From an uncultured Nitrososphaeraceae archaeon (GTDB taxonomy: Archaea; Thermoproteota; Nitrososphaeria; Nitrososphaerales; Nitrososphaeraceae), in the NCBI GenBank assembly GCA_963837175.1, contig CAWIMJ010000036.1:1-48789 (forward strand): a stretch of 48,789 nt of DNA, read 5' to 3'. Positions within the stretch are counted from its first letter, which is position 1, and every line of letters starts with the position of its first letter. The notes below the pieces were generated by a model that saw only the letters and a program-made list of their open reading frames with translations, was not told where the DNA came from and searched no databases. The translations under genes and the position numbers were made by a program. Positions 12,121 to 48,399 of the stretch are shown here, in pieces.

Positions 12121-12294
12121 CGGGTTCGGCGGAATGCAGGACAGATTTGACTCTATTGTGCCACCAAGGATTCATTCTATTTATAGAAATACATTCTCAG
12201 AATACAAAGACTGAGGACGAAGGCGAACTAAATATCTCAGAATCTATATAACAACGTTTTGCCAGACGTAGGAGAACATCTTGTAATTTATTTG
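12121..12294 (-). repeat. Conserved histidine-kinase trailer ending in a tRNA-3'-like site, copy A
   Basis: Highly similar to 31698-31873 and to parts of 14465-14811; similarity stops at cgggttcgg. Confidence 0.85.
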
Positions 12295-13989
12295 TTATTT
12301 GATCGGTAGGCTAAATGCAAAGGTAGCACCTTTTCCATCTGAGTTATTTTCAGCCCATATTTTCCCATCCTGGGCTTTAATTATTCCCTGTGATATGAAT
12401 AATCCAAGTCCAGTACCTTTAAAAGACTTTGTAGCAAACTTTGAAAACAGTCTTGGCAAAATCTCTGAATCTATTCCTGCTCCACTATCTTTCACACTCA
12501 CTATAACATTTCTAGAACTATTAACATAATCTCCTCCTTGTTCTTTTTCTTCTTCTTTATTTCTACCCTTTTTTTGTGTCACTCTTGCAGATACTGATAT
12601 AGTTCCATCTTTAGTGAATTTTATAGCATTATTTAGTAGATTTGCAATAACTTGGTATATTCTTGTTTTATCTGCATCTACAAATATAGCCTCATTTGGT
12701 TCTACAAATAATATTTTTAATTTATTAGAAGAGATTTGTTTTTCAATATCTTTTATAACATTTAATATTTTTTTATTTATATCAAATTTTTCTTTATTTA
12801 AAATTAGAGATCCACTTTCGATTTTTGAAACGTCTAATATATCTTCTGCAATTTGCCTAAGTCTGTTTGAGTTTCTAACAATAACATCTAGAAATTCCTT
12901 TTCTTTTTCTATATTTATAATAGCCCTGTTATTACTATTGTTTGTTTCTCTCTTTCTGAAGAGCAGGAGTTCAGATAGTGTAAGTATGGGCTGTATAGGG
13001 GTTCGCAGTTCATGTGCCGCCACATTTATAAATTCGTCCTTTAATTGATCTTTATGTTTTAGTTCTTCATTTGCATTTTCCAGTTTCTTTGTTAATTCAT
13101 TTTGTTTTTTGATATAGTTCTTTATAGAGTTCACCATAGAATTGAAGGACTCACTTAGAACTGAAAGTTCATCATTACCTCTGCTTTTAACTGATACTTC
13201 AAGATTTCCTCTCCTTACTTCGGACGTTGCTGTAGTTAGAGCAAATATTGGTTTTAATATCTTCATAACAAGGTAAAGCACAACAGCAGCAACTGAAATA
13301 TTTAAAATTGCAAAGATTGTTTGCAGAAACATTAAATTCTGCGAACTATTTCTGGCATATTGTCCTAACTGGGTAACCAATGCATTTGATAAATCTACTA
13401 AAGATAATGCTCTTGTTTCCGATGTTGTTTTTATAGCTTTGTCTATTGCTGTTGTTGTTGTTGTTGCTGCTGCTGTTGGGTTAATTTTTTCATTTGGTTT
13501 GATTATATTGTTTGTTAAGATTGTTTTTAGTGAAACCCATTTCTGATAAATTATATTCCAATCATCAAAAAATTCTAATGGCAACGGTTTTAGATCTACA
13601 TTTGATACCTTTCCACCTTGTCTTAATGCCAAGATGTTTGATTCCAATTGCTGTACTGCAGAGTTGATTTTAGATATATGATCGACTTTAGAAACATCAC
13701 TACTATCCGCTAAAAAATATTCTGACATATGAAGCATGAGATTAGAGGTGAGGTATCGATTCTTTCCTGCAATATTTATTGAATTTCCTAAATAAGTTCC
13801 CTGTGATTCATAGTAAGAGAGTACACTAAAACTGCTAATAATGAAAATAATTTGAATAACAACTAATATTCCTATTTTTAAGCCTATTTTAGAACGTATC
13901 AATCTAAAAGCATTAGTGCCATCGTACTTTAACATGATTATGTATATTGGAGGATGTATTTCAACATTAAGATGATAAGTTATTATCAT
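12295..13989 (-). CDS. Membrane sensor histidine kinase with PilJ/NarX-like extracellular domain and HAMP
   Basis: Two TM segments, SINIAGKNRYL motif, HAMP (DELSVLSESFNSM), AAHELRTP, N/G boxes; true start probably at a later Met. Confidence 0.93.
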   Translation of the reverse strand: MIITYHLNVEIHPPIYIIMLKYDGTNAFRLIRSKIGLKIGILVVIQIIFIISSFSVLSYYESQGTYLGNSINIAGKNRYLTSNLMLHMSEYFLADSSDVSKVDHISKINSAVQQLESNILALRQGGKVSNVDLKPLPLEFFDDWNIIYQKWVSLKTILTNNIIKPNEKINPTAAATTTTTAIDKAIKTTSETRALSLVDLSNALVTQLGQYARNSSQNLMFLQTIFAILNISVAAVVLYLVMKILKPIFALTTATSEVRRGNLEVSVKSRGNDELSVLSESFNSMVNSIKNYIKKQNELTKKLENANEELKHKDQLKDEFINVAAHELRTPIQPILTLSELLLFRKRETNNSNNRAIINIEKEKEFLDVIVRNSNRLRQIAEDILDVSKIESGSLILNKEKFDINKKILNVIKDIEKQISSNKLKILFVEPNEAIFVDADKTRIYQVIANLLNNAIKFTKDGTISVSARVTQKKGRNKEEEKEQGGDYVNSSRNVIVSVKDSGAGIDSEILPRLFSKFATKSFKGTGLGLFISQGIIKAQDGKIWAENNSDGKGATFAFSLPIK

Positions 13990-14464
13990 AAAAGCCCAAA
14001 ATAAGGATATATTCGATTAGAGCTAGACTTAGGTGTGCTACAACATGGCCTCTAAATACACAGTGAAGAGAATTACTATACAAGAAGTAACTAATTAGGA
14101 GGTGAGCTAGTAGCTATAATGATAGATGCACTTACCAAGACGAACCTACGGAAGTATTTCCTGGTGACCCATACCTAATGGCAAATATTGGAACTACCGG
14201 AGATCAGATAAGGACTGAAAAGATAGGAGATGAAGATGAAGAAGGAATTGATAGCAGTAGGGAAAATAATAGAGATAATAGGAGCTATTATTCAATCAAT
14301 CAGCAATATCACCTTTATTCTGACGAAAGCTTTCTGAATTATCCATTCTGTCCATTATCATGTTGATTAAATAGGTTTGGGAATGTCGATGATGACTGGA
14401 GCGATGCTAACGTAGGATTAAACCAAGAAGAATATTCGTGGTGGTAGTTATAAAATTTAATCCA

Positions 14465-14811
14465 CGGGTTCGGTGGGATTCGGGACAGAATTGACTCTAT
14501 TTTTCCACCCGGAAATTTTACATCAGTAGCTGAGATAATTTACATATGTTTATAATACATGTAAATTCTCCTGGTTCGGTGGGATTCGATACACTATAGT
14601 GTATGTAGTCAACTTTCTTCAGCAGGGAACTTTATCAAATGAAAATATCTGCAAAGCAAATCTTCTTTCTGTCCTTCTGGCCTCCCAGGATGCATCTATC
14701 TGTAGAAATTCATTCTCATAGTACAAAGACGGAGGACGAAGGCAAGCTAAATATCTCAATCCATATAACATCATTTTATCAGACATAGGAGAATTTCTTG
14801 TTATTCATTCG
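14465..14811 (-). repeat. Histidine-kinase trailer copy B, containing two tRNA-3'-like sites (14465, 14573)
   Basis: 14465-14512 and ~14685-14811 match copy A/C; extra ggttcggtgggattcga at 14573-14589. Confidence 0.8.
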
Positions 14812-16578
14812 TTATTTGATCGGTAGACTAAATGCAAAGGTAGCCCCTTTATCATTACCATTATTCTCAGCCCATATCTTTCCACCATGAGCTTCTACAA
14901 TATTTTTGCAAATGAATAATCCTAATCCCAGACCGCTACCTTCTAAGGATTTTGTAGCATACTTTGAAAATAATCTAGGTGAAATTTCAGGGTTTATACC
15001 TTCTCCAGTATCCTTAACGCTAATGATAACATGTTGATTACCTTCTTTCCTTTTTATATTAATTGATATACTTCCTTCTTTAGTAAATTTAATAGCATTC
15101 TTTAGTAGATTAGAGATAACTTGAGTTATTCTTCCTTTATCTGCTTTTACTGAAATAATATCATCTTTAACATCATATAGTAGTTTTACTTTCACATTAT
15201 CAATTTGGTCTATGACATCTTGTACTGCATTTAATATTATACCATTTAATTCGAACAGTTCATGGTTTAGTTTTAGTGATCGGCTTTCAATTCTTGTAAC
15301 ATCAAGTATATCTTCTGTAAGTCTTTGCAGTCTTTTTGCGTTTCTGAGTACGATACCAAGTAACGCAAGCTGTTCATCATTTTTTATTTTGGAGCGAAGA
15401 ACCTCAGATATGCCAAGTATAGGCTGAATAGGTGTTCGCAATTCATGTGATGCCACATTGATAAATTCATTCATTATTTTGTCATGTATTTTTAACTGTT
15501 CATTTGCTTCTTTAACTTGTAGATATAATTCAGTTTGTATCCAAAGGTTTTCAAATATAGAAACAAAAGATAGAACTCCTGATTTGCTATTAGAATATAT
15601 TGATAATCCTATTGCTTTGTCGAAAGTATCTTTTGAATCATCCTTTAATTCCATTACTAATGAAACTTTTCTATCGACTACTAAAAATGTGGCTTTATTC
15701 CCTGAAGATTGTTCGATGAATCGAACATCAATATTATTTTGATGACGTTGTCGTTTTAAATCTTGTACTATCTGTTCAGTTGATTTGTGGATAGGCATCA
15801 AGATTCTAATCTTTAGTTTATTGTACTGCTCTTTTGTTAGTACTTCTTTTAACCATTGTATTACTCCTATCTTCTCTTGGCGAATGATAGCATTAATAGT
15901 AGGAAATATCAGCAGTATTTCTTCTGCAGCATCTTTCACAATATTCATATAAAGATCCTTTGCCTTAGATGAATTTTGAATAACTTCAACAATATCTGGT
16001 TTTATTCCTTCTCCCATTTCTCTGATTTTCTGTTCTGCTGGAATTGATTTGCTCCATAAAGCTTCAAACATATATTCCTGCTGTTCTACAATTTCTTTGA
16101 CATTGCTATAGATAAGATGTGGTACTGGTTTTGCTTCTTGCAGAACTGCAGCAGCTACATATTCTTTTTCACTTACTGCCATTGCACCTTTGATTCCATC
16201 TAAATGGCGAACCTCTGCAATTTTCATCAGATCTTTGCAATATGATATGTTTTCTTTGGTAATTTCAGTAGCATATCTTATTCTAATACCCCTTTCTTTC
16301 AGGTCAACTGTTCCTCTTTTTATTGGTTCAACTCCCATCGTTACTGATGGCCCTGTAGAATTTGTACAAACATTCCATGTACTTCTTGTATTAGAGAAAG
16401 ATTGCAAAAGTCTAGCTGTTGTATTCTCTCCTCCATAGAATACCTCTGTACTTTCAGCGGCAGCGATTGCTCTTGCTTTTAGTTCTATTTCTTCTTCTTT
16501 CTCAGTATTGTTTATTGTTATTATTGTTCTATCCTTAGAATCAATACTACTATTTGTTTTGCTATCTTTGACATCCAA
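14812..16578 (-). CDS. Cytoplasmic sensor histidine kinase, paralogue of 6757-8409
   Basis: EVRHLDGIKG N-terminal motif, ASHELRTP, NLLKNAIKFT, DTGEGI, GSGLGLGL. Confidence 0.95.
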   Translation of the reverse strand: MDVKDSKTNSSIDSKDRTIITINNTEKEEEIELKARAIAAAESTEVFYGGENTTARLLQSFSNTRSTWNVCTNSTGPSVTMGVEPIKRGTVDLKERGIRIRYATEITKENISYCKDLMKIAEVRHLDGIKGAMAVSEKEYVAAAVLQEAKPVPHLIYSNVKEIVEQQEYMFEALWSKSIPAEQKIREMGEGIKPDIVEVIQNSSKAKDLYMNIVKDAAEEILLIFPTINAIIRQEKIGVIQWLKEVLTKEQYNKLKIRILMPIHKSTEQIVQDLKRQRHQNNIDVRFIEQSSGNKATFLVVDRKVSLVMELKDDSKDTFDKAIGLSIYSNSKSGVLSFVSIFENLWIQTELYLQVKEANEQLKIHDKIMNEFINVASHELRTPIQPILGISEVLRSKIKNDEQLALLGIVLRNAKRLQRLTEDILDVTRIESRSLKLNHELFELNGIILNAVQDVIDQIDNVKVKLLYDVKDDIISVKADKGRITQVISNLLKNAIKFTKEGSISINIKRKEGNQHVIISVKDTGEGINPEISPRLFSKYATKSLEGSGLGLGLFICKNIVEAHGGKIWAENNGNDKGATFAFSLPIK

Positions 16579-17270
16579 GAATGGGTTAGTGTTGTTATTC
16601 TTCTTCTCTTCTTTAATATTACTGTTTTTTATTATAGTCGGGATTCATCATCAACTTACTACCATTACTATAGTATACAACTTATTATCCCAATGTATGT
16701 ATATTGATCCCTACTTAAACACCTATGTTATTTGTTTGAAAGTATGATAAAAGAGCTAGTAAGATGAAGCAGCCAAAAATAAGTTCTCATCTGCCTAAGA
16801 AGTAACTTGTATCAAAGATATTTGAAAAACTTGGTTTGTTGTTGTTGTTTAGTTAGAGGTCATTTCTAATCTCACAACTAAAAACGCAAGATCCCAATAT
16901 CGACTTTACTATTATAATAAATATCTAAATCTTTTATTCTGAAATTATCACTTTGATTCGATGGGCTTGGAATATAGATGTGAACTATTAATGAAACAGA
17001 ATCGGGCCCATGGGATCGGGAATCAAGCATTGATATAATTTATGTGCTGAAATGACAATAATCAAAAGTTTTTTCTCATGACGATATGACTTCTATTATA
17101 AAATGTAGGTTCCTGTTGTTTGACTGTTCATTTAAAACGCTGTGATCGTTACTTTGATATACTTTCTCTTTCTCATATTAACCTTTTAGAAGTCTTTGAT
17201 AATCTAATCCTTAATTATTCTCTTACTTGTATTTTTCTTGTTGCTAATTATAACTTGTATATATATCTAG

Positions 17271-17519
17271 CTAAACACCAGGACCTACAGCAGGATCCCA
17301 GTCTGGGTTGCCGTCTCCATCCATGTCAGAAGTACTATCTACACCTTCATAGTCAGATTCATCTTCTTCTCCTGATATTTCTTCTTCAGATTTTTTTGTC
17401 ATTCTTACTGGCTTTTCGTCCTCCGGTCTAACTATTGCTTCTTTTGGAACATCAGGAAATTCTCCTTTTTTACTATCTTCTTGTGCACTTGCATTATTAG
17501 TATCGGTATCCGCAACCAT
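17271..17519 (-). CDS. Small acidic hypothetical protein (82 aa)
   Basis: MVADTDTNN...DMDGDGNPDWDPAVGPGV; the upstream extension to 17750 looks non-coding. Confidence 0.55.
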   Translation of the reverse strand: MVADTDTNNASAQEDSKKGEFPDVPKEAIVRPEDEKPVRMTKKSEEEISGEEDESDYEGVDSTSDMDGDGNPDWDPAVGPGV

Positions 17520-18033
17520 ATATCTCAGTGATAATAGCTTGTACGCCACACATGATTTAACAATTTCATAAAGCGCCAAGATTGGAATGGGCCGGGTCGT
17601 TTGTGAACTGTTGTCGACACAAATTTGTGGCCCATTGGTGCTAATCAATTTAACATGATTTTTAGAACTCTCATTGATCTGCTTTACTAACCGTTGAGGA
17701 ATTGGCGAAAACTTGGAAAGAATATTTGCTTCGAGTATACTATATTCCATATCTACATCCTTGACGATTAGCTTAAATGAACTAAGGTTCTGTTTAGCTT
17801 TATCTCATTAATCTCATTACATCATCTTGGGTTCCTCCCCTATAAACTACATCAATATTGCATGACATATTTTCTCTACCGATTTTGCAACTGATATCTT
17901 ATACTTTTCATCAGAGAGTCAATAAGTTCGGCTGAAACACTTAGTCCATAAGAGCGATCCTGGCATTGGAGAGATCTTTAATATGAACGGTTCAGTTATC
18001 ATCTCATTATTTATATGACTGGACATATAGAAT

Positions 18034-19407
18034 GTGACCCAAATTATGCTCTCTATAGTTAGTGTATTAAGTGGTAGCAAGCAGGCACTTGTACTAATTT
18101 TACTTATGGCTGTTGTTACTATAGTGGACTCTCAGTTCATTAACATTTTCTATGGAACTGATTTAGGAACTCCTGGCAATTTGCATTTGTTATTGTTTGT
18201 ATCATTTGTTATTATTGCTTCAATAATTAATACCATATTGCTGCTATTCGTCAAAAGAAATGATATTTATTCGACAACTAGTAGATCATTGTTGTTTAGA
18301 GTTGCTTATATTGGTACATCCATAGTTCAATACACTATATCGCTTGTATTGTTTATCACGATCTCAGAGATGCTCATTTTCCATGAATATAACAAGATAT
18401 TCTCATTATTAGTAGTCTTTCTCAGTCATTTTTGGTCAGCTATTATACTTGGAATTCTATCTTTAAGATTTATACAATGGTTTAGATTTGCTATATCATT
18501 TTCAATCCTAATTTATGGAGTTGTTTTCAGTATGATTCTATTTCTAATTTTACTCACGATTCCATTGCTTACACAACAGTTTACGAATCAGTCCCAGTTG
18601 ATATACCCCAGAGATTATACATCTCTAATTACGGCAGTAATTGTTCCTTCCCGTGACATTGCATTCATTTATGGACTGGGAAACTATGTTTTACCTCTGC
18701 TGATAATACCTTCATGGATCCTCACAGTTTTGTTACTTAAACCCTATGCAAACAGAATTGGGAAGAAGAAATTCTGGCTAATAGTTAGCATTCCATTACT
18801 CTACCAACTTTTCACATTTATCGTAAGAGATACAAACTTAGTAACTGATCCTACCCTAGTTCAAATTATATACTCCCAGCAATTCCAGGTCATCTTCGGA
18901 ATTAGCTATCAAGTATCTGGGTTATTTTTCGCTATTGCCTTCTTGAGTATTGGAAGAAAAATGAAACGAAAAGGCTTGAAAAACTATTTGATAATTTCTT
19001 CCATAGGTATCGTCTCATTATTTTGTTCAATGCAACCAGGAATGCCATTCTATGCGGTTTATCCCCCATTTGGACTTGTCACACTTTTGTTCTTAGGACT
19101 ATCATCATATATGCTTCTTGTTGGAATGCTAGGATGTGCAGCATATGTTTCTAGAGATAGTGAATTACGACGAGAGATCTATAAAGGCTTAGAAGTTGAT
19201 GCTGATGTCTTGAAGAAGATAGGAATGGCAGAAACTCAACGAGAAATAGAAAAGAGGGTCCTACCACTTGCCGACAAAATCAAATTGTCGGATGAGATGA
19301 GAAGCCGTATGGATACAGATCCTGACAAAGAAGATGTAAAACTAATGATAGAGGAGGTATTGAATGAGATACATAAGGGATCACGCATTAAACCAGGTCA
19401 TCGATAA
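18034..19407 (+). CDS. Polytopic membrane protein (~10 TM) with charged cytoplasmic C-terminal domain
   Basis: 457 aa of alternating hydrophobic segments; tail DSELRREIYK..LKKIGMAETQREIEK..EDVKLMIEEVLNEI. Confidence 0.85.
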   Translation: MTQIMLSIVSVLSGSKQALVLILLMAVVTIVDSQFINIFYGTDLGTPGNLHLLLFVSFVIIASIINTILLLFVKRNDIYSTTSRSLLFRVAYIGTSIVQYTISLVLFITISEMLIFHEYNKIFSLLVVFLSHFWSAIILGILSLRFIQWFRFAISFSILIYGVVFSMILFLILLTIPLLTQQFTNQSQLIYPRDYTSLITAVIVPSRDIAFIYGLGNYVLPLLIIPSWILTVLLLKPYANRIGKKKFWLIVSIPLLYQLFTFIVRDTNLVTDPTLVQIIYSQQFQVIFGISYQVSGLFFAIAFLSIGRKMKRKGLKNYLIISSIGIVSLFCSMQPGMPFYAVYPPFGLVTLLFLGLSSYMLLVGMLGCAAYVSRDSELRREIYKGLEVDADVLKKIGMAETQREIEKRVLPLADKIKLSDEMRSRMDTDPDKEDVKLMIEEVLNEIHKGSRIKPGHR

Positions 19408-19686
19408 TGCTGAAATTGGTAAATATTCTATTCTAAGTAACATTACGAATAAAACGCCAACCTATGAGTTAATATTTTCAATAGCTGGAACATATGAAAA
19501 TTCTGTTCAATTAGTTCTTATATGATTGTGACTACAATCAATCTGCTAAGAATGAAACTATCTCCAACCTTCAACACTGGCAGATTACCGCAATAAATTA
19601 ACAAATATTATCTCTCACATATTATTTGGTCGGAGTTATAAAAAGGTTATATCAATTAGTTCACAAACTTCAATAGTGTTAAACTG

Positions 19687-20484
19687 ATGCATATATCATC
19701 TCTTTATAATAGCATAAGATTAGACATTCGGAAGATGATATTCTTAATTCTATTAACGACAACCATCTTTATTATTACTAGTAGTAGCCTTTCAAAGAAC
19801 TTATACGCTAGTCCCTCTGGTATTGGTTTTTATTCTCCTAGTTCCCCACCATCTGGAGTTAAATCGCTTGAACCTTTAATAGCAAAGTGGTGGAATTGGG
19901 AGATTACCAACCCTAGTACTATTGATAATAATTGGCCTCAATGTCTTAAAGGAGATGGTGGAGTCATAGGTAATAACCAATCTGTAGTCTTTCTGGGAAA
20001 TCCCTCCTTTGCGGTAGCAAAAAACGTGAATGCAAGAAACCAAAAATGTGAAATATCTTCTAGTCAACTACTCTACTTGACTGTATATCCAGGTGAATGT
20101 TCTACAGGATCAAAACCTCATGAAGGAGAGTATCCGGATACGAAGTCCCCTGCTGATCTTTTAAAATGCGCACAAGATGCAAACAAAGAGATTAAATTGA
20201 TGCAAGTCAAGGTTGACGGCCAGGATGTTTCATCTAATATTGTCCGTCAAACTACCTCTAAACCATTCAATCTTATTGTGCCTCCCGATAATCCTTTTGA
20301 GTGGAAAGCGCCTATTGTTGGTGGAAATAATACATCAATGGCTGAAGATTATTATCTGTTCTTCAAACCATTGCCAGTTGGAGATCATACGATAGAATTG
20401 CATGTAATACGAAAACCCCTTCAAGCTAACCAACCTGTCGAAAATGACATTGCTAAGTGGAATATTAAGGTAGTCCCTGAATGA
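19687..20484 (+). CDS. Secreted Cys-containing hypothetical protein (KWWNW family)
   Basis: Signal-like segment; AKWWNW, C..VVFL, GECS, YLFFKPLPVGDH; paralogue of 22647-23360. Confidence 0.85.
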   Translation: MHISSLYNSIRLDIRKMIFLILLTTTIFIITSSSLSKNLYASPSGIGFYSPSSPPSGVKSLEPLIAKWWNWEITNPSTIDNNWPQCLKGDGGVIGNNQSVVFLGNPSFAVAKNVNARNQKCEISSSQLLYLTVYPGECSTGSKPHEGEYPDTKSPADLLKCAQDANKEIKLMQVKVDGQDVSSNIVRQTTSKPFNLIVPPDNPFEWKAPIVGGNNTSMAEDYYLFFKPLPVGDHTIELHVIRKPLQANQPVENDIAKWNIKVVPE

Positions 20485-21035
20485 ATCACTTTAACTATAG
20501 GACATTGGATCTTTTCAGTTCTGGCTCTTATGCTTTGTAGGCACCACTTTGATTCGATCGTGTTGGAAATGTAGATTACGATAACTGTGGCAATTATGAT
20601 ATAGGATGGAAGAAGTGTGAGAGCATTAGAAATATGAAAGAAATCTTACGTGATGTTTTGAATGAATTTTACTACCCAAGAAGAGTAAGGAAGACACACA
20701 GAAATAATAGAGAGTATATCAAAGATAGCAAGATTAATCGCTCCTATTTCTTAATGTTTCAGTCAAGCTTTAACCTTTCTAACGTCTAATACAGATACGT
20801 TCACTTAACCAGATACTTCCTGATGAAAAAAGGTGTGCTAGTATGTGCTTGGAAGAAAAGTCAGCTAGAATAGATAAGTAAAACCTGTCGATACTGATAA
20901 TATAAAAATATAGTTGGATAGATATATAATAGAAGTACTTCGGGAATGACTGTAGAAAGACATTCAATGATAAGACTTTAATTGTTATATTTATACCACA
21001 TTCTATTACTCTCCAAACCATTATTATTGCTATTG

Positions 21036-23562: not shown

Positions 23563-24576
23563 TGCTCTGTTGCATAACTTGTTTAAACAATCTTTTTCAT
23601 TACTCTATAATTGAGAATTATATAATGGCTATACTTTGAAACCAGTTATATAATGATGCTCTTAGTATTAGTTCCTTTATCATATTCTCAAATCTAATAG
23701 CAGTAACATTTATCCAAATATTCTTTTAATACATGAGAAGACGGTTTCTGCAATCCATCTCTTGCCATAGTTCACACTAACCTTCCAATTCTGTAAATTA
23801 TTTTTCTGTATTTTCACCATCTTGTTTCTAAGATAATGATTTACCTTTCTACATCTAGAATTCTTTCTAATCTTTATTGCTGGTTTGATTCCTTTAAATG
23901 ACAATATCTGAAAATTCTTGTTACTATCATACAAACCATCAGCAATTACTGTGTTTACTATTTTATTCTGCTTTATTGTTATTATATCATCTATCAATTC
24001 TGGAAGTATTTTACCATCATGTACTTGTTCACTGGTTACATGTAATGATAAAATTCTCTTCTTTTTTATGTCAACTGCTAAATGTATCTTTAGATAGCCT
24101 CTTTTGACATTCCATTTATGTCTAATCCACTCGCCTCTATTAGATACCTTTATTCCAGTAGAATCAATGGCAATTACAAAATGGTCATCATGTAAACTGG
24201 ATTTATTCGCATCATCAATTTTAATATGTAGTCTATTTATTCTTCTGCTAATGTTACTATAGTCAGGAATTGATGGTAATGTGTTTGAAGCATGCTCCCT
24301 AACTACTCCTTCAGTCTGTCTGTATGATGGTAAATGAAAATATGCTCTCATGTAGCCAAGTAATTTGATAAATGAATCTGGGTATACGAACTTTCTACCT
24401 TCTTTACCTTGATTCATCTTCTCTAATTCAGTAGGCCAGTTATCTATAACATCAAAATCAAGTAATACCTCACCACGTTTAACAAGAGATTCATTGTACT
24501 TGTTCCAGTTCACATGTATTATGACTAGAATAGGTTAGCTAAATGTGTTGGGAACAGGGAGTTATGCAACAAGGCA
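23563..24576 (-). mobile_element. IS5-family insertion sequence with TIRs and 8-bp target duplication
   Basis: TIRs TGCTCTGTTGCATAAC / TGCCTTGTTGCATAAC; GTCAATAC at 23555-23562 and 24577-24584. Confidence 0.92.
23710..24513 (-). CDS. IS5-family DDE transposase, C-terminus cut by a frameshift
   Basis: NWNKYNESLVKRGE, IAIDSTG, YLKIHLAVD, ADGLYD, RWIAETVFSCIKR; the tail (IRFENMIKELILRASLYN) is in another frame. Confidence 0.9.
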   Translation of the reverse strand: MNWNKYNESLVKRGEVLLDFDVIDNWPTELEKMNQGKEGRKFVYPDSFIKLLGYMRAYFHLPSYRQTEGVVREHASNTLPSIPDYSNISRRINRLHIKIDDANKSSLHDDHFVIAIDSTGIKVSNRGEWIRHKWNVKRGYLKIHLAVDIKKKRILSLHVTSEQVHDGKILPELIDDIITIKQNKIVNTVIADGLYDSNKNFQILSFKGIKPAIKIRKNSRCRKVNHYLRNKMVKIQKNNLQNWKVSVNYGKRWIAETVFSCIKRIFG

Positions 24577-26190: not shown

Positions 26191-26195
26191 ACTAA

Positions 26196-29165: not shown

Positions 29166-29576
29166 AATTAACTTCTTTTAAAATATCCTCTTTTACGTAT
29201 ATATACTTAGTTAACAGCATATTACGTGTATCTTCTAGTTGTCACATTAATGAATTGATATATTGAGATATAATCGAAATGTATTTTAGAGTCCATATGT
29301 ATATTGTGGATAAATTAATTTCTATGTTAAAGCAGGTTGCTGGTATTCTAGTATCTTTGTTAATGATAATACCCAAAAAGTAAATGTCTAACTCAGTACA
29401 AGCAGTGTAGGAATTTATCCAGCTTGATAATTTGAATTTTGTAGTTTCTTTGTAGACAACATCAACATCATAATATTGATCTCAGTTAAAATATATAGAC
29501 AATAATGAGACTACACTTATAAGTGTAAAATAAAATACGTCGCTTCTCTTTGGTTCAACTTTTTTTACATTTGTAA

Positions 29577-31697: not shown

Positions 31698-31873
31698 CGG
31701 GTTCGGTGTAATGCAAGACAGAATTGACTCATTTTTACCACCCAGGATTCATTCTATCTATAGAAATACATTCTCAGAATACAAAGACTGAGGACAAAGG
31801 TGAACTAAATATTTTCAGAAATCTATATAACATCTTTTTTGCAAACGTAGGAGAATTTCTTGTTATTTATTAA
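31698..31873 (-). repeat. Histidine-kinase trailer copy C ending in a tRNA-3'-like site
   Basis: aggattcattctat.tatagaaatacattctcagaatacaaagactgaggac shared with 12121-12294. Confidence 0.85.
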
Positions 31874-33676: not shown

Positions 33677-33728
33677 ATACTATCATCAGACGATACTAGT
33701 GAAATTTATTATTTCTCTATAATAAGTA

Positions 33729-37666: not shown

Positions 37667-39457
37667 ATGTCTGAATTTATACAAAACGTTGGTAGTTACC
37701 TGATTCAACGATTATATGATCATGGTGTCCGACATATCTTTGGTGTTCCTGGAGATTATGTACTTGGATTCTATCAAGAGTTAATCCATTCAAACAAACT
37801 AAAGGTCATTAATACCTGTGATGAGCAAGGAGCAGGATTTGCAGCAGATGCCTATGCTCGAGTTAATGGACTGGGTGTCGTATGCGTAACTTATTGTGTA
37901 GGCGGATTTAAGGTCGCCAATGCTGCGGCACAGGCATTTGCGGAAAAGTCTCCGCTTGTAATAATATCTGGTGCTCCAGGAATAAAAGAACGTAGAAAAA
38001 ATCCACTTCTTCATCATAAAGTTCGAGACTTTGATACTCAGCAAAGGATCTTTGAACATATGACTATTGATTCTGCTTTGTTAAGTAATCCAACAACTGC
38101 TGCAAAAGATATTAATAGAGTATTATCAGCAGCTATCAGATACAAAAGACCAGTATATATTGAATTACCACGAGATATAGTATCAGCTTCAATACCTGCT
38201 GATCAAAAGCTATATGTTGACTCTCCTTTGTCCTCTAATGGATCCTCCGAAAATGTGAAAGCAGCAGAAGAAGGAGAAGAATATCAAACTGATATTGCTT
38301 CTATGAAGGAAGCAGTATCTGAAGCAACAACACTGATAAATTCTTCAAGTCAACCAGTCATTATTGCAGGAGTAGAAATACATCGTTTCACTTTACAAGA
38401 TAAATTGCTCCAATTGATTAATAAAACAAATATCCCTGTTGTATCAACAGTGTTAAGTAAATCAGTAATAAGTGAAGACCATCCATCTTACCTTGGAGTA
38501 TATGAGGGTGCCATGGGATATTACTCAGTAAGAAAATATGTTGAATCCAGCGATTGTTTGATTTTACTTGGAGCATTAATGACAGACATTAATTTTGGTA
38601 TTTCGCCTACACCAATAGAGCAATCTAGAAGTATCTATGTTACTAGTGAAAAACTATCGATCAAACATCATAACTTTGAAAATATCCTTTTGCAAGATTT
38701 CCTCACCTATTTGATAGAAGCACCTTTGGCAAGAAGAGATTTTATGAACATTCGCAAACAAGATTATGATGTGAAAAGCTATTACTATAATAGTAATAAT
38801 AATAATAATAATAATAATATAATAATCGTTACCCTAATATTCACAATAATAAGCATTTCTCAGCTGAAAGAAACCAAAAGATAACTGTACAACGTTTATT
38901 TGAACGCCTTAATCTATCTATAACTGATAATAATACAATTGTCATAGCTGATGTTGGTGATTCATTATTTGGGGCTCTTGATTTAACCATTCATGGGCAA
39001 ACTGAGTTTCTATCTCCTGCTTATTACCTTTCAATGGGATTTGCTGTTCCTGCTCGCTATGGGCGCTCAACTAGCCAATCCAAAACTTCGTCCTATTGTA
39101 ATAGTAGGAGATGGTGCTTTTCAAATGACTGGCATGGAAGTATCGACTATTGTCAGGTTTAATCTAAATCCAATTATTATTGTCTTAAATAATAAAGGGT
39201 ACGGAACAGAACGTCCTATGCTTGATGGTCCCTTTAATGATATATTACCATGGAATTATAGCCAAATTCCTGATATGATAGGTGGTCATGGTAAAGGTTT
39301 TGTCATAGAAACAGAAGATCAATTAGAAGAATCTCTCTCTGCTGCTGAAAAAATTTATTCTCAAGAATTGTGTGTACCAGATGTACATTTAGACATTCAT
39401 GATGGGTCGCAAGCGTTACAACGGCTTACTGAAGCACTAGGTAAAAAAGTACAGTAG
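37667..39457 (+). pseudogene. ThDP-dependent alpha-keto-acid decarboxylase (pyruvate/indolepyruvate decarboxylase family), two frameshifts
   Basis: [48 protein letters not shown]; shifts at ~38820 (AAT repeat) and ~39053. Confidence 0.9.
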
Positions 39458-40611: not shown

Positions 40612-40783
40612 ATTGAAAGCACTACTTTTAGGATTCTGAAATATAAAAGTGAAAACAGATATTGGAAATATGAGTCGAATCCTTATTCGGATGCAAAGTA
40701 GAACTTCTTGGAACTAATAAACGGCTCACCTGCTGCTTCAGAATTATAATAATACATATATATTTTTTTGAATATGAATAAGC

Positions 40784-41149: not shown

Positions 41150-41469
41150 TGGATAGTAACAAAATAACTAATAACTTTTGTCCAATAAAAATATGCTCTA
41201 TTCTCTATTCTTACGTTAATTAATGATACTATTGAATCCCTTTACATGCAGGACCTAAACCCCCTTGAGCCCTTATTGCCCCTTTGCAGTTATCTAGTGT
41301 TCAATTAGCGGATAAATACTCATAAATACAGTGATAGAAAACTTTAAACTTGACCTGATTATAGTATAATCCGGAAGAATTCTTTTTTAGAAGTGCTAGC
41401 ACAACGGATACCACCGAACGCGCTAACTATACGGGTTCTTATACTGTAGAGAATAGAGTAACTATTACT

Positions 41470-41730
41470 GGCATACTGAAAGGAGTGAATAAATAAAAGA
41501 TGGCAGTTAAATCCAGTAAGAAAAGTAGCCCTCAATGCCTCATCATTTCCTAAAAGTCCTGTAATTAGGCCTGAGACACCTCCACCTGTTATTACTGTAC
41601 TTGTATTGGTTGGAAACTTAACTACAGGTCTTAATAGGAACAAGATAGAAATTACAATTAGAAATATTCCAAGAATAACTTTGAGAATATCCTGTGATAA
41701 TATGCCAACAAAAGCCTGCAATAGCACCAA
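41470..41730 (-). pseudogene. TSUP (TauE/SafE) family transporter fragment
   Basis: ILKVILGIFLIV..VITGGGVSGLITGLLG..ALRATFL. Confidence 0.6.
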
Positions 41731-42267
41731 TAATTTGAGATAAAGGCAACTACAAAAAACAAGATAACTTCTAACATTGTCTTTGCAAGTTCATAGGATT
41801 TGAGAATATAAATCGTTCAATACGTGTTTTGACTTAGAACATATAGACAAAGACAAGAGCCCCTTATTCCTTTCATTGAATATCTTTAAAACTTCTAACT
41901 TTACTTATAGCAGATGCTAAAATTTGGCCTTCGACACAAACATCAAAGAATTCTCCTACCACAATTTGTCCTTTTGAAAATTCAAATTGATATTCTTGGG
42001 ACGATATTGGATCTGCTCTTTGTTGCTCTTCGGATGGCCTTTAATCTCCTTCGTATAATTGAAATATTTCTGATTTGTAGACTATAGTTACTTTTATCTT
42101 ATATTATTTAGGTTCGAATGCTGTAATTGTAAAATCTTAAAGGTGCTCAAAATTAGTATTACGACGCGTTACTATAAGAAGAAAGTAGATGGTAATAATG
42201 GAATATAGATAAAAGCCAACGGTATCAGAATCGTTCCCTTTTTAAAGATCGGTTATGTATATTATAA

Positions 42268-42935
42268 GTGCAAATAACAAAAGATAGAAAAAAGTGTGTA
42301 ATAGATCTCTATTTTAATCAGCATAAGATATACGCTGAAATCGCAGAAATAGAACACATCTCACCACGGGACATATACGCTATCATAAATGAGGAGAAGG
42401 CTAGACTAGACAACTACAAAATAAGCATCAGCAACAGCAACAAGAGCTATCTTCCAAGGCTTACAGATTATTTTCTGAAGGTAAGCCCCCTGTTGAAGTC
42501 GCTATCGCATTAAACTTGAGAGAGCCAGAAGCAACCAAATTATACAGAGAGTACTGGAAACTAAAGCGATTACACAAACTGAATTCAATATATGAAGAGA
42601 TTGGAGACGATATCCTACACATTATAGAGTTATACAGGAGAGCTAAGAAAGAAGGTACGAATATAGAACATATTGTTAAGCTTCTTCAACTAGCCGATGA
42701 GGGTAATGCTTCTGGAATATTACAGCTTGGAAGAAGACACAAATGGCTTATAGACAAGATACATGAGTTGGACATGCATATAGAAAGAGCAAAGAACTAT
42801 CTCTATAGTCTCAATAATGAGATCGCAGGTGCAAAATATTCACTTGATTACTATCATGAAGCTTATGAATGACTAAGACAAGAGTTGCATAAACTCTATG
42901 GAGAAAAGAATAAACTAGAAGATCTTCTAAGAGAA
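42268..42935 (+). pseudogene. HTH/coiled-coil repeat-family protein, copy 5 (frameshifted, truncated)
   Basis: VIDLYFNQHKIYAEIAEIEHISPRDI and KLLQLADEGNASGILQL near-identical to copy 1. Confidence 0.85.
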
Positions 42936-43361
42936 ACTAATGGTAATATTGCAGAGTAATAACATCATGTAAAATCAAACAGATAGAGTGTACTTTTACC
43001 TCCCCATAGAGACCTTCTATATATGGAAGTTTATATGCTCCAGTCTTTGTTGCTGTAGAAATAAAAAAAGATTGAATTAGTTCTGTTATAGAAGTTATTG
43101 ATGTCTTATGATAGTAGTTATCATCTGACATAATCAATATCGTTATAACTAATAATGGCAGCATCTGTTTGATTTCTTTTTTATTGCTAATTGATATCAT
43201 TGCTACTTAGAAATGATGATATATTTTGCCAAACTAAAGCCTAATTGGTTAATTTAATCTTTCAATTATCTAAATCAAAGAAGCATGAAATAGGTAAGAT
43301 TTGTCAGTCCGATATTGAAAATATTTACAAAACCATTTATTCTTACTCGCCTGAGAGCTGT

Positions 43362-44500
43362 TCACCTTTTAGTAGTAAATGACCATTGTTTAGCTGAATC
43401 TAATGCATTACCTGCTAGATCTTCTGCTCCTATATCTATTGCAGCAACATATTTAGTATTTGGAGAAAAGTCTTGCGTAGAATCAAATATAGCAGTTTTA
43501 CCATCTGAGCTAAGAGAGACTATACCTGTTATAGCGGTAGTCTCATCTGCCTTTTTTACAGTGAATGTATTTGCATTAATAGACGGACTGCTCATAGGCT
43601 CACTAAACGTAGCGCTAACAAGCGAGGTAACTGGAACTTCTGTGGCTCCATCCGCAGGCATAGTATTAAGTACTTTTGATGGTACTTTCTCGCCAGCTGG
43701 TTTTGTAGCAGAAGCGAGCAGCTGCTTTCTCTGTAGCAGATTCTGCTCCTCTCATTCCAAAATAAAATGCAATTATTGTTGCTAATGCTGTTCCAAGTAT
43801 TGTACCAAGGTTCTTTAGTATGTCAATCAAAGATTGAAGAATAGGGCTTGTTGAATTATTGATATTTAGAGTAATTAGAGCAAGAAGATAAAATATAACT
43901 GTTCCAACTAATACTATAATTCCAAACGTCATTAAAGATCTATATAATCCTGGCATTCCGACAACTCGACTATTATCTTTATCAGTACCTATCCTTAGGT
44001 TTTTTTCTATAGGCTAGATACATATCAAAAACTAAGGGAATAATTATGATAAGAAAAATTACAATTATGAAAATTTGTGGAAGATTATTATCAAAGATTG
44101 AATTTATTACTTTAGTAGCATTAACTGCAGTTGCATTAGCAGTAGTAGGTAATGGTCTAGCAGCAGCAGAAATACTGGAAATATTTTGTAAAGCTTGTGT
44201 AGCGTTAGTTAATGCAGCTGTTGCATTTGCCAAAGCGCTTGTAGTATTCTGGGTTATATTTGTAGCATTTTCTAAAGCACTTGTAGCATTTGCTAATGTA
44301 CCAGTAACGTTTTCTGATATGGCATTCGTAGCATTCGTAGTATTAATTAATCCGCCAGCAATAGTTGTCATGGATTTACTAGAATTAGGAACAGGTGAAG
44401 AGAAACTAGCTATTACCCTCCCTGAAGACAAATTGTCGATGAATAATAGAGATACGAGCATTACTGCAGAAATTGTGTTTATGTATACTCTTTTCGTTTT
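43362..44500 (-). pseudogene. Membrane protein with Thr/Ala/Asn-rich linker and C-terminal Ig-like domain, split into three ORFs
   Basis: 43982-44461 (NAT repeats, TM), 43666-43956 (TMs, IIAFYFG), 43362-43661 (PADGATEVPV..ATFSEPM..DLAGNAL..WSFTT). Confidence 0.75.
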
Positions 44501-44809
44501 GCTCGCAATATAACAATCGCTAAATCTTTTAAGCTTTTTATTGTTAGTGTTCTATAAAATATTACAGGTTCCATATACTTAAAATCAAGCGTTTAAAACT
44601 GTCGTAGAAATAGATTAAAAGAAAATCTTTCTATATTATTATACTCATGGTTTGCCTTTATTCTTGTGTATATATGGCACAATATCCACATAGAGGAAAA
44701 CTTTTTTCATGTTTTAGAAGGCAGATTATTCATTGTTGCAGTTGTAATAAATGTCTGATTCAGAATGCTGATAGATTTAATCACTTTATGTCTAAAATAG
44801 ATATTTAAG

Positions 44810-45335
44810 GAGGTTAGTGCAGTTTATGCATGCTGCTTTAGACTACATTATAAGACTACCAAACAAAGAACGAACAACGAACCTGTTTTTAAAGAAAAAT
44901 TGACTTATGACAGTTTGTAGTTAGCTGTCAAAATTTCTTCAAATTCATTTTATGGTATATTTGGAAATTCAAACTTTAAGTAGTGATTATCGGGTTGCAG
45001 AGCTCGTAACTTTCTATGGCAGAAAGTTCCATAGATTCACGGAAAGTACTGCGCGTAAGAAATTTGGATTAGAAGTTGTTTATGGTTTCACAGATTCTAT
45101 TTTTGTCAAAGACAACGTCAGCAAAGATAACATTGATGCTTTCATAAAATACTGCAAGGAGAACTACGATGACAACTACCACCATCATGGTAGATTTGAT
45201 ATCCAGATAGAACACCAAAAGACCTTTAGATATACAATGATCTTTGGTTTAATGAATTGTTACATAGGATGGACTCGGAACTTACAGGATCCAATTTATT
45301 TTACTGGTATGAACTTTATGAGCACAAGCAGGTGA
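44810..45335 (+). pseudogene. Family-B DNA polymerase fragment
   Basis: Motif B LAVKISSNSFYGIFG (broken by stops), VAELVTFYGR, motif C variant VVYGFTDSIFV. Confidence 0.8.
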
Positions 45336-45707
45336 GCATCGTATCTCTGAATTAGTAAAAGCTGCAGGTTTTAAACACTTTAAACGTGCTACTCAGACAC
45401 CATTTAATTTAATATACGAAGTTAAACCTTGACTTTTTTTATTCTTTTATCAATGCTCTTCTTTTCTATCTAGGGATATAAGTGCACACTATATCATAAT
45501 AATAATAATAATAATTCAAACTATAGACTATTGCAATTAGATAAATTTGGGGCTCAATCTTAAGAGCTGCATTATAACATTCATTCTATTGCCCATTCTA
45601 GATAAATTAAATAATGTCATCCCTCCTTTATCATTCGAATATTTATAGTTTAAAAAATATAATGTAAATGATAATAATAATAATAATAGTAATAATAATA
45701 ATATATT

Positions 45708-46169
45708 ATGAAATGGATAACAAGAGAACATGCAAAAGTAGATCGAATAGCGTGTCCTTGGCTTATAAAAAATTTCATTGATAAGGATGCAGAATTTCTT
45801 TTTGTAGCCGCACATAAAGTAATTGAAATATCCAAAGAACAAAATGCCATACCTTTTGACATACCAAATGTTGAGTTAGGTCATCATGGTGAAGAATGCT
45901 CTTTTGATGCTATTTTAAAAAAATATGGATTGGATAAAAAAGAAGAGGAGCCTGCACTGCTTGAATTAGCAAAGATTATTAGAGGAGCAGATACTCCTAA
46001 TAGGAGTCTAACTCCTTACTCTGAAGCTCTGGCTGCATTAGCTAGTGGTTTTAGTATTATTTCAAAGGATGATTACGATAATATGACAAAACAATTCTAC
46101 GTATATGATGCACTTTATGCATTTTGTAAATCTGACAACAAAGAAAAATTGTTGACTTCTAGACATTAG
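45708..46169 (+). CDS. Chromate resistance ChrB-domain protein
   Basis: MKWITRE..KVDRIACPWLI..FID..AEF, PFDIP..ELGHHGEECSFDA, IIRGAD, YDALY. Confidence 0.9.
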   Translation: MKWITREHAKVDRIACPWLIKNFIDKDAEFLFVAAHKVIEISKEQNAIPFDIPNVELGHHGEECSFDAILKKYGLDKKEEEPALLELAKIIRGADTPNRSLTPYSEALAALASGFSIISKDDYDNMTKQFYVYDALYAFCKSDNKEKLLTSRH

Positions 46170-46469
46170 TCGCTTAAATCTTCTTATTGTCTTATTAATG
46201 AAGTTGCATATACATAGCTGAGAAATATGCACATCTTTGTTGTTTTTTATAGATTGAAGAAAAACTAAATAATGAAGTAACAGAACCCTTATACATGCAG
46301 GGAACTAATCGTACCGAACCCGCTACAATATTGGTGCTTTAAGTTGGTTTCACAAATAATATAATGAATTAAAAAATTGGAAAAATCAGATTTAATAATA
46401 ACAACAACCTAACAGAATTAAATCCTTGGTCATTGTATATTTAATATGAAAGAAAAGTTCACCTAACTG

Positions 46470-47456
46470 TTATTTCAATGCTGGAGATATCTCTTTAGAA
46501 ATTAATTTCACTAGCTTTTCTCTGTCTGGACTAGAATTTGTCAACACAATTTCTGTAAACCCTAAACCCACATATTTCTCAAGTTTCTTTATTCCTTCCT
46601 CTGCATTACTAATTACTAATAACATCTTTTCTAATGTATCATCACCAATTACTTGAGCATTTTCTTCAATCTCACGAGGATCATGTACATCTACATCAAA
46701 AAATGCCTTTATCATAGCACCTCTCCAAAATCTAATTGATTGTATTGCCTTTTCTTTATCTTTATCATACGAGGCTGGTATAAAAAGTATTTTTTCTAAT
46801 GTATCAAAGTCTTTTCCTGACTCTTTTGTCCCCTCTCTAAGTGCAGGAAGCAATTTACTTTTTATTGATTCTACATTAATTTCATTTGTTACAAATCCAT
46901 CTCCTTCCTCTCCTGCCAATCTAGCTGTTTGAGATCCAATAGCTGCAATATACAAAGGAATTGGTTTTTGTGGTTTAGTATATAGATTAGAATCTTTCAC
47001 CCAATAGTATTCTCCTTTGAACGTTATCCATTCTTCTGTCCATAGCTTTTTAATTAATGTTATTGCTTCTTTTGTTCGCTGAAATCTTTCTTGAGTTGGA
47101 GGCCAATCATTACCGGAAGTTACTTCATTGAGAGATTCTCCTAAACCAACTCCCAAAAATACTCTATTAGGAAACATGTATCCAAGGGTTGCAAAGACTT
47201 GAGCGACTACCGCTGGATTATATCTAAGTGTTGGAGCGGTAACACCAGTACCTATTACTATATTGTTTGTTTTAGCTAAAGCAGCACCTATCCATGGCCA
47301 GGCTGCAGCACCAGAAGCTCCATTATGCCACCAGGGCATATAATGATCACTTGACCAACATCGTTCTATACCATTTTTATCCATAATAATGACATCATTT
47401 AGTAAATCAGTAGGGTTTACTTGTTCATGAGCTGCTTGAATACTAATTTTTACCAT
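46470..47456 (-). CDS. F420-dependent LLM-class oxidoreductase (G6PDH-like family)
   Basis: AAHEQ, WSSDHYMPW, GTGVTAPTLRYNPAVVAQVFATL, FLGVGLGESLNE. Confidence 0.92.
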   Translation of the reverse strand: MVKISIQAAHEQVNPTDLLNDVIIMDKNGIERCWSSDHYMPWWHNGASGAAAWPWIGAALAKTNNIVIGTGVTAPTLRYNPAVVAQVFATLGYMFPNRVFLGVGLGESLNEVTSGNDWPPTQERFQRTKEAITLIKKLWTEEWITFKGEYYWVKDSNLYTKPQKPIPLYIAAIGSQTARLAGEEGDGFVTNEINVESIKSKLLPALREGTKESGKDFDTLEKILFIPASYDKDKEKAIQSIRFWRGAMIKAFFDVDVHDPREIEENAQVIGDDTLEKMLLVISNAEEGIKKLEKYVGLGFTEIVLTNSSPDREKLVKLISKEISPALK

Positions 47457-48399
47457 ATCTATCCTTTAATTCTTTAGAACAAAATACGATATAGCAGTTT
47501 TGTATATTGCGGTTTATGCAAATAAAAAGTAAACAACTACTCTCTATTTTACATTGTGTAAGTGGATTACATAACCTAGTATATTGAATCCGATAGAACC
47601 CGATCACAAAAGTTTACCTTCTTCTATATCAAACTTCATTGCTTCTTGCATGTACTCTGAAAAAGAAGTATAATACATATCACAGTTAATTTTTAAAACT
47701 TCATATTTATCCTTTCTTGGTTTTATCTTCTCTGTTATTGTAATAAAATCATCTTATTTATTGTTATGGGTAGGAGAGATTTCTGATTCCGATTAGAAGA
47801 CAATGTTTTCGTAATTTTATTCATTAGTGATTCTCTTATTTATTTGATATTTAGTTAGCTATATGCTATGCTTTTCGATATTATTCCCAAAAGCATTTAC
47901 AGTGAATTATTCAAATTAGACATTTTTACCATAGCAAGATGGATGTGTTTAAAAGATAATAGTGAATTTAGGCTTTATTCGTTGAAATTGTATTGGCATC
48001 TAACTTACTTTTGTAATCCATGTTTTAGAATAGTGAGATATATAATTGATGAAAAGAGAGAAGATAATAACTTTATGCAAACGGAGAAAACTTTAAAGTT
48101 AACATATTTCTTAATATAGCAGAGTCTCTTTTTAGAACTGCTATTGGTGCGAGAACCACCGAACCCGTGACAATATTCTTCCTTTATTACCACCCGCCTT
48201 CTAATAATATATGTAGTTGGATTTGTTATCTATAACAGAAAAAGGGAATACCACGACAAAGCTAACGAAGAACCTTATAATAAATATGAAAATATCAAGA
48301 TTATACTCTATCTCTCATCCTATGTATTCTATATACAGAATTTTCTTTTAATTATGAAACGAAAAATACGGATTGTGGCAGTAAGACCTGCCAATGTTT

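Follow-up and report, generated by a model that had tools for sequence, protein, structure and literature searches.

The DNA analysed here (the window) is the whole of contig C36, 48,789 nucleotides long, in the assembly G000 of an uncultured Nitrososphaeraceae archaeon. It carries eight copies of a short motif identical to the 3' end of the tRNA-Lys(CTT) gene of the host. The copies are enriched over background, they are flanked by conserved arms whose families combine freely, they are mostly repeated in direct orientation, homology breaks at them, and the tRNA-Lys gene itself has an integrase gene beside it. In the explanation that we consider probable, the motif is the core of the attachment (att) site of integrative elements that target tRNA-Lys(CUU) via a tyrosine integrase, and it has been multiplied by re-integration and by recombination between copies. 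The host assembly has 3.81 Mb in 58 contigs, with 34% guanine plus cytosine (GC), 91% completeness and 3.2% contamination. It encodes an archaeal AmoA, and the host is therefore an ammonia-oxidising archaeon, whose size and GC would fit the genus Nitrosocosmicus.

Copies of the tRNA-Lys 3' end in the window and the genus

We searched the window with the 16-mer AATCCCACCGAACCCG, allowing at most 3 mismatches, and used 100 dinucleotide shuffles as the control. There are 8 matches in the window; the shuffles average 0.05 with at most 1 match each, and 0 of the 100 reach 8. On the minus strand the copies (mismatches in parentheses) lie at 12121-12136 (3), 14465-14480 (0), 14571-14586 (1) and 31698-31713 (3), and on the plus strand at 41407-41422 (3), 46307-46322 (2), 47587-47602 (3) and 48152-48167 (3). 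The weakest is the copy at 47587 (AATCCGATAGAACCCG), which we accept because its left flank belongs to one of the arm families described below, family B. An earlier note on this DNA had proposed eight copies of one tRNA 3' end; all eight exist, and the positions in the note agree exactly with ours at four sites and differ by 1-2 bases at those given as 14573, ~41405, ~47586 and ~48151.

The tRNA starting with GGGTTCG that the note had predicted is tRNA-Lys(CTT), at C7 c[3527,3621], one of only 30 tRNA genes that ARAGORN reports in G000 with introns allowed. Its 5' end is GGGTTCG, its 3' end is GTGGGTCCGAATCCCACCGAACCCG (in short form, ...CGAATCCCACCGAACCCG), and CTACGATATC follows. The ARAGORN drawing agrees with the proposed parse of the motif into a T-loop end, the T-stem strand CCCAC, the acceptor strand CGAACCC and a discriminator G. 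The window copies repeat the last 12-19 bases of this gene, and the copy at 14465 agrees with it over 19 bases, so that the identity with a tRNA 3' end that characterises an att site is found here for tRNA-Lys. The CTA that trailed the consensus of the note is the start of two types of right arm (CTAAC... and CTACG...), and one of these types comes after the tRNA gene as well. A stretch within the Lys-type core reads CCACCGAA. The window itself contains 0 tRNA genes by ARAGORN and 0 matches to Rfam families at the gathering score, and its sites are thus neither cloverleaves nor members of a known RNA family.

The enrichment on which the proposal of the note depended holds genome-wide as well as in the window. 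With up to 3 mismatches the 16-mer matches at 90 places on 37 contigs of G000, and the 12-mer core CCACCGAACCCG, with up to 1 mismatch, has 68 matches versus 1-3 in three shuffles. Our curated set, which leaves out a coding repeat on C9, other tRNAs, and matches that fit no family, has 85 copies on 35 of the 58 contigs. They form 45 clusters, the largest of them in the window; for 12 clusters both contig ends are 20 kb or more away. All six congeners have copies, 13-34 each (15-mer, at most 1 mismatch), and 12 genomes from other genera of the family have 0-5, with 0-1 for a reversed-pattern control. Nearly all candidate sites (90/92) fall outside open reading frames (ORFs) of at least 100 amino acids, in an ORF set that is crude. 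The gene upstream of a site is on the same strand in 30 cases and on the opposite strand in 22, which is no preference. Copies tend to be close to contig ends, 25 of 85 within 5 kb versus 15% expected, and in 3 of the 5 assemblies holding the tRNA-Lys gene a contig end is at most 3.5 kb from the 3' end of the gene, in G004 exactly there. The coding repeats at C9:60500-61300 and C18:16200-16800 in G000 are rich in CCACC/AATCC and read as proline/glycine-rich protein repeats; they match tRNA-end motifs by chance and are excluded from the counts.

Arms, arrays and homology breaks

The core common to all copies is the 12 bases CCACCGAACCCG. In 73 of the 85 copies a left arm lies directly 5' of the core, belonging to family A (30 copies), C (18), B (16), D (6) or E (3). 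Left arms are 31 to ~85 bases long and have a sharp outer edge, and perfect palindromes stand a few bases ahead of the core in arms B and D and in the arm at 41371. On the other side of the core there are eight right-arm types, which we assigned by simple start patterns and which cover 63 of the 85 copies. R1, of ~88 bases, contains CGGGTTC, complementary to the end of the core. The true tRNA-Lys gene is joined to right arm R3 in G000 and G002, and to R1 in G003. Left arms of family A are found with R1-R8, B with R1-R4 and R7, C with R2, R3 and R7, and D with R1, R4, R6 and R7, so that the left-by-right table is filled almost at random. Such reassorted arms point to recombination among many copies, and not to serial insertion at one place alone.

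Association between arms and core was tested on 81 non-duplicate copies. The left-arm family goes with positions 1-4 of the 16-mer only (z scores 5.5-11.9); positions 5-16 are independent of it, and therefore the shared block is CCACCGAACCCG. The right-arm type is at best weakly tied to core position 14 (z 2.2). Seven further A-arm copies lose similarity to the core just past CCACC(G), and in three of them a second, degenerate A-arm-like stretch comes directly after. These copies give a hint, and no more, that strand exchange may take place inside the 12-mer. They are, in G000:

C16:29281, A arm with broken core
C22:11445, A arm with broken core
C52:61805, A arm with broken core
C29:3423, A arm with broken core
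C29:4897, A arm with broken core
C32:7604, A arm with broken core
C14:2366, A arm with broken core

Several other interpretations of the arms were tried and rejected. The right arm R3' (TTGTGATATCAC...) fails as an integrase-proximal arm, since what follows it are genes for CorA and deacetylases and not an integrase. Opposite-strand coding in arm A (GFGG-MQDRIDS..PP) fails, with a frame open for just 32-36 codons and conservation that ends sharply at GGGTGG; the several synonymous-looking differences between the window copies at 12121 and 31698 are explained by their being paralogous 3' flanks of kinase genes. A primer-binding site of a retroelement would need the complement of a mature tRNA end, and no right flank starts with CCA.

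In the window, the Lys-type cores and their arms are arranged as follows.

12121..12167, minus strand: Lys site 1, core CATTCCGCCGAACCCG at 12121-12136 and family-A left arm at 12137-12167
14465..14570, minus strand: gene-free mini unit of 106 bases, with right-arm type R7, a family-A arm at 14481-14511 and an exact core at 14465-14480
14571..14629, minus strand: Lys site 3, core AATCCCACCGAACCAG at 14571-14586 and family-B arm with the palindrome ACACTATAGTGT
31698..31744, minus strand: Lys site 4, core CATTACACCGAACCCG and family-A arm, with right-arm type R6
41371..41510, plus strand: Lys site 5, palindrome-bearing arm (TGCTAGCA), core GATACCACCGAACGCG at 41407-41422 and R1 right arm of ~88 bases
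46257..46322, plus strand: Lys site 6, family-C arm and core AATCGTACCGAACCCG
46323..47602, plus strand: one-gene block between core 6 and a family-B arm with degenerate core at 47547-47602
48086..48167, plus strand: Lys site 8, family-E arm starting with the TATA-like GAAAACTTTAAAG, core AGAACCACCGAACCCG and right-arm type R8

Neighbouring copies are mostly repeats in direct orientation. Across the genome 41 of 50 adjacent pairs are co-oriented, as are 34 of the 38 pairs less than 20 kb apart. When cores of all types are taken together, the window has 6 out of 6 on the minus strand at 11.6-31.7 kb, and then 6 out of 6 on the plus strand at 40.6-48.2 kb.

Homology and synteny break at the motif, both in matches to congeners and within the genome. 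For a 10-kb piece of the window, none of the congeners has a collinear counterpart; matches are limited to pieces of at most 2 kb on different contigs, and several of these matches begin at 12121-12123, as does the homology of site 1 with C17. Matches in C1, in G002:C56 and in G005:C15 terminate at the core of Lys site 6. Among the high-scoring segment pairs within G000, 7 of 158 ends are at most 25 bases from a core versus 1.3 expected. Direct repeats at which homology breaks are a further property of att sites, and the copies bound blocks in this way, as the proposal of att-delimited cargo blocks in the note had it. We present the case of the block 46323-47602, whose gene is a luciferase-like monooxygenase by Pfam (46470-47456, minus strand). 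G002:C230 has this block at 90% identity, beginning 5 bases past the left core and ending with the last base of the right one. To the left of the block there is a C arm in the window, an A arm in G003:C238 and no core in G002, and the three-way alignment breaks at the core. Another example is C8:91606-94579, where a lone M1 peptidase gene (877 amino acids) lies between two cores and is without counterpart in the six congeners. The mini unit 14465-14570 also recurs in G005, after a B-arm core on C29 (95% identity across 235 bases) and twice after D-arm cores on C17. Many paralogous blocks have just one boundary at a core. We rejected a candidate 37-kb element on G005:C17 between two double sites; its "repeats" belong to a segmentally duplicated stretch that is longer than 5 kb and 93-99% identical.

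The stretch at C31:10732-14193 is 98-99% identical over 3.5 kb to 45320-48789 of the window, three cores included, and both contigs stop ~620 bases beyond the last core; this pair may have arisen by recent duplication, or the bin may contain two strains. In four soil sequencing runs compared with 10500-20500 of the window, contigs are a few hundred bases long, and the loose ends at 14467 seen in runs X1 and X5 may come from paralogous copies.

Integrase genes and the proposed origin of the copies

A candidate for the cognate integrase that the note had called for is a tyrosine integrase gene that begins 59 bases past the tRNA-Lys gene, which places an integrase at the tRNA junction as at other att sites. 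The Pfam Phage_integrase match (C7:2493-3047) scores 32.4 bits, above the cut-off. In G000 this gene is frameshifted into frames of 156 and 267 amino acids; in G002 it is intact, with 419 amino acids, and is followed by a 692-amino-acid protein and a family-B DNA polymerase (PolB). These two genes after the integrase identify the G002 arrangement as a real mobile element. By eye, without a reference alignment, the 419-residue protein has the boxes Arg, His-x-x-Arg, His and Tyr; a search for relatives with solved structures finds none at E <=0.01. The core in G002 ends 59 bases before the start codon and the 419-residue frame is whole when integrated. The core is outside the integrase reading frame, and this is therefore not a split (suicidal) integrase of the Sulfolobus spindle-shaped virus (SSV) type. 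Remnants of the integrase family number 14 in G000 and 62 across the seven genomes. Those in G000 adjoin tRNA-Lys, -Met, -Ile, -Val and the tRNA at C7:53034, and they also come after the non-tRNA cores C8:86920 (by ~800 bases) and C22:12287 (by ~1.4 kb). Homologues of the G002 element backbone (a 151-amino-acid protein, the 692-amino-acid protein and PolB) are found at C25:125533-128466 in G000, at 58-82% identity and reaching the contig end, which suggests a second element of the G002 type at C25. In the window, the block 41423-46322 contains one trace of the same kind:

44952..45335, plus strand: 127 amino acids of a family-B DNA polymerase gene

The fragment is likely a remnant of a mobile-element backbone; the intact tRNA-Lys element of G002 also has a PolB gene.

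Other tRNA ends are copied too. In G000 the last 16 bases of tRNA-Ala(CGC) have 6 exact copies and those of tRNA-Val(GAC) have 5, and the amplification of the tRNA-Lys end is unequalled by any other tRNA end. All tRNA ends together give 0-2 matches per shuffle in 20 shuffles of the window, which contains these four:

11629..11690, minus strand: tRNA-Ala(CGC) site, an exact 17-base copy of the 3' end at 11629-11645 with a C-like arm (GAACTCCTTTACCACAAGGGATAT)
17587..17602, minus strand: copy of the tRNA-Val(GAC) 3' end with 2 mismatches, its right flank like Val-type copies on C28 and C40
40594..40610, plus strand: copy of the 3' end of the tRNA at C7 c[53034,53130], with 1 mismatch
41218..41273, plus strand: tRNA-Met(CAT) site, a C-like arm (CCCTTTACATGCAGGACCTA) and a copy of the 3' end at 41258-41273 with 2 mismatches

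Arm types cross tRNA types, with C-like arms before Ala and Met cores and the A-arm box GTCAATTCTGTYC before Val cores. The earlier note is thus right in kind, and the phenomenon is genus-wide and involves several tRNAs. Its picture of serial integration stands insofar as the copies are probably of the att type. It does not stand for a single array growing from the same tRNA-derived site, since the window has no tRNA or integrase match, its sites switch orientation midway and include cores from at least three other tRNAs, and the copies form ~45 clusters on 35 contigs.

The proposed mechanism can be put together from these parts. An element would carry a left arm, a core and a right arm, usually beside its own integrase gene. 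Insertion would occur by recombination with the 12-19 bases of identical sequence at the tRNA 3' end and would leave one core at each end, and each leftover core would be a new target, so that later elements could enter earlier ones by accretion. Any two cores could then recombine, a direct pair leading to excision or deletion of the block between them and an inverted pair to a flip. Integrase genes would decay with time, and what remains would be blocks of 0.1-17 kb, often with one to three genes, joined by arms and cores; the window would be one such patchwork. The exchange would be performed by the integrase family described above, strand exchange would lie within CCACCGAACCCG, and copies away from the tRNA gene would have arisen by integration into earlier copies followed by rearrangement.

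A number of observations weigh against this mechanism. The window lacks a tRNA, and no integrase match is found in it. The tRNA-Lys integrase is frameshifted in G000, so present activity here is doubtful. For arrays remote from the tRNA gene, of which there are 12 or more at a depth of at least 20 kb within contigs, the model needs extra steps. Within one array unlike tRNA cores are co-oriented, which independent integrases do not predict, and for this shared orientation we have no firm explanation. The link between right arm and core is marginal and so does not fix the crossover point. We saw neither an excision product nor an empty site, and the short contigs of the four soil runs gave no usable core joint. 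Some near-identical copies may be strain variants, in an assembly of 58 contigs with 3.2% contamination. In IMG/VR viral contigs the A-arm pattern has 0 matches, so arm plus core are absent there, and the 24 matches to the exact 16-mer are all in unrelated DNA of 49-66% GC. On the same two results we rejected a viral origin of the motif, which we had considered as a separate candidate.

One alternative starts from the compactness of the arm-plus-core units. Their families are short (~47-85 bases) with sharp ends, arms B and D and the arm at 41371 have palindromes, gene-free units of 74-149 bases exist, 90 of 92 copies avoid ORFs of at least 100 amino acids, and the expansion is confined to the genus. 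All of this would suit small non-autonomous transposable repeats, derived from or mimicking the tRNA-Lys 3' end and spread by transposition in the manner of miniature inverted-repeat transposable elements (MITEs), repetitive extragenic palindromic (REP) sequences or short interspersed nuclear elements (SINEs). We regard such an origin as unlikely, because left and right arms assort freely, and are thus unpaired, unlike the two ends of one element, because 41 of 50 neighbouring pairs are co-oriented, which random insertion does not predict, because right arms R3 and R1 are also found joined to the true tRNA gene, and because no Y1 transposase and no TnpB are found in the 91%-complete G000. For the last point, PF01797 and PF07282 each have 0 matches in G000 and positive controls in 6 and 8 of 14 genomes, which speaks against IS200/IS605 elements and against REPs mobilised by REP-associated tyrosine transposases (RAYTs). 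Integrase remnants after some cores also argue against transposition, and the arm alignments have no terminal inverted repeat of the MITE kind (no formal search for target-site duplications was made). Less probable still is a role at the RNA level, in which the units would be tRNA-like 3' processing or stability elements of mRNAs, or small RNA genes with a tRNA-like tail. Arms D and E start ~60 bases before the core with GAAAAC-TTTAAAG, which resembles a B recognition element (BRE) and TATA box, in arms A and B a GGGTGG or GTGGAT ahead of the core could pair with its CCCAC like a T-stem, and three of the window copies come after histidine kinase genes that share their strand. Against that, the strand relation to neighbouring genes is not consistent (30 vs 22), the acceptor strand has no partner except in R1, Rfam and ARAGORN both report 0 in the window, and neither the homology breaks nor the presence of R1 and R3 next to the tRNA gene would be explained; we consider this role very improbable.

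The integron offers another parallel. Its attC sites have paired R''/L''-L'/R' boxes and the crossover motif GTTRRRY, and its cassettes are co-oriented. Each of our units could be a portable site like attC, with cassettes of one or a few genes moved by an integrase acting in trans and the ~45 clusters forming an active shuffling network in place of a collection of decayed elements. Single-gene blocks between cores fit this well (the M1 peptidase of C8:91606-94579, and the luciferase-like block 46323-47602 in its three contexts), and so do the gene-free units, the pairing of the same arm types with cores of different tRNAs, the lack of an integrase gene in most blocks, and a conserved part confined, as in attC, almost entirely to one side of the joint. 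It seems doubtful to us all the same. By inspection, with no attC-finding program run, CCACCGAACCCG does not fit GTTRRRY, and block genes are not co-oriented with the sites (30 same strand, 22 opposite); many paralogous blocks have one core boundary only, no circular cassette was seen in the short contigs of the four soil runs, the Lys-type integrase is broken in G000, and next to the arrays we found neither an IntI-type integrase nor attI. Somewhat more readily, though still tentatively, we can imagine a genus-wide network that resembles integrons but works by tRNA mimicry. An arm plus the last 12 tRNA bases would make up the site, arms would be re-fitted to different tRNAs (Lys, Ala, Val, Met), and integrases acting in trans would move blocks among dozens of loci, with a cargo of one- or few-gene blocks that would include sensor kinases, metal transporters and peptidases.

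Neighbouring genes, significance and known systems

The window has four paralogous sensor histidine kinase genes (HisKA + HATPase_c) on the minus strand, at 6757-8409, 12295-13989, 14812-16578 and 31874-33676. The last three share a conserved stretch of ~170 bases past the stop codon, which continues into the A arm at 12121 and at 31698; Lys site 1 is 159 bases past the stop codon of 12295-13989, and Lys site 4 comes after 31874-33676. A unit of kinase plus A arm is also found at C17:58892-60885, with 91% identity. Metal-homeostasis genes occupy 2112-11027 and 27459-31430, and include a DtxR-type repressor, ZIP-like transporters, a multicopper oxidase and a cation-efflux protein with three dimerisation domains. 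An insertion sequence (IS) transposase gene (DDE_Tnp_1; 23710-24513, minus strand) lies within the 17-kb block between the cores at 14571 and 31698. A TauE/SafE-like fragment at 41359-41730 (minus strand) matches its family at residues 7-61 only and stops where R1 begins; the second half of the gene was not found in the window or in the rest of the genome. A thiamine-pyrophosphate enzyme on the plus strand is in two frames, 37667-38884 (N and M domains) and 38993-39457 (C domain), which may reflect a frameshift, a pseudogene or an assembly error. A ChrB-like gene is at 45708-46169.

Integration at tRNA genes and tandem accretion are textbook knowledge. What stands out here is the scale and the organisation, with ~85 copies of one tRNA end per genome, amplification throughout the genus, and five arm families that also occur with other tRNA ends. 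Mobile blocks jointed by cores on such a scale are unusual for any genome. Should the sites still be in use, they would rank among the main drivers by which soil ammonia oxidisers with large genomes gain, lose and duplicate genes; between the sites of the window we find the four paralogous sensor kinases and the metal-homeostasis set. They would also amount to a defined recombination system, an integrase and a 12-base core, for archaea so far without genetic tools. The sites break assemblies (25 of 85 copies are near contig ends), which matters for the binning of these genomes.

We found no description of a dispersed, genus-wide tRNA-Lys att family with conserved arms in ammonia-oxidising archaea, and supplementary element tables may bear on this. 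Several known systems share some of its features. Our arrays are like integrons, and like attC clusters lacking an integrase, in being arrays of short blocks with structured repeats of 60-120 bases in species- or genus-specific families, with a conserved site at one end of each block and clusters without integrase. They are unlike integrons in that the core is a tRNA 3' end and not GTTRRRY, genes are not co-oriented, and blocks reach 17 kb. In Streptococcus thermophilus, Pavlovic et al. in 2004 are said to have described accretion beside an older element that leads to tandem att-bounded blocks, where blocks without integrase reportedly move with a neighbour. That case is said to involve few blocks at one locus and, unlike ours, no genome-wide family of sites. 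Archaeal integrons are the subject of 10.1101/2022.02.06.479319. For Thaumarchaeota, the main-text passages of Krupovic et al. 2019 (PMC6563490) report integrated elements of which 57% are in tRNA genes, with a median att length of 17 bp and occasional tandem re-use of sites; the name Nitrosocosmicus is absent from the main text. The ammonia-oxidising host group and the short att sites in tRNA genes are as in our case; the elements in those passages are single or double, and a dispersed multi-copy att family with conserved arms is not described there.

The closest described case that we found, as passages of McMurdie et al. 2011 (PMC3146451) present it, are the tandem ssrA islands of Dehalococcoides. 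These strain-specific islands are bounded by direct repeats of ~20 bp of the 3' end of a small RNA, just upstream of each repeat there is an extra conserved motif unlike the RNA gene, and many islands have no integration module of their own and are interpreted as cis-mobilizable elements that came together by accretion. Repeats of an RNA-gene end, a conserved motif beside them and blocks without integrase are what the two systems have in common. According to the same passages (PMC3146451), the Dehalococcoides system is bacterial, targets tmRNA with a serine recombinase, and has about a dozen repeats per genome within 100 kb downstream of ssrA, whereas here we have an archaeon, tRNA-Lys and a tyrosine integrase, with ~85 copies in ~45 clusters, five arm families, inverted arrays and mixed tRNA cores.

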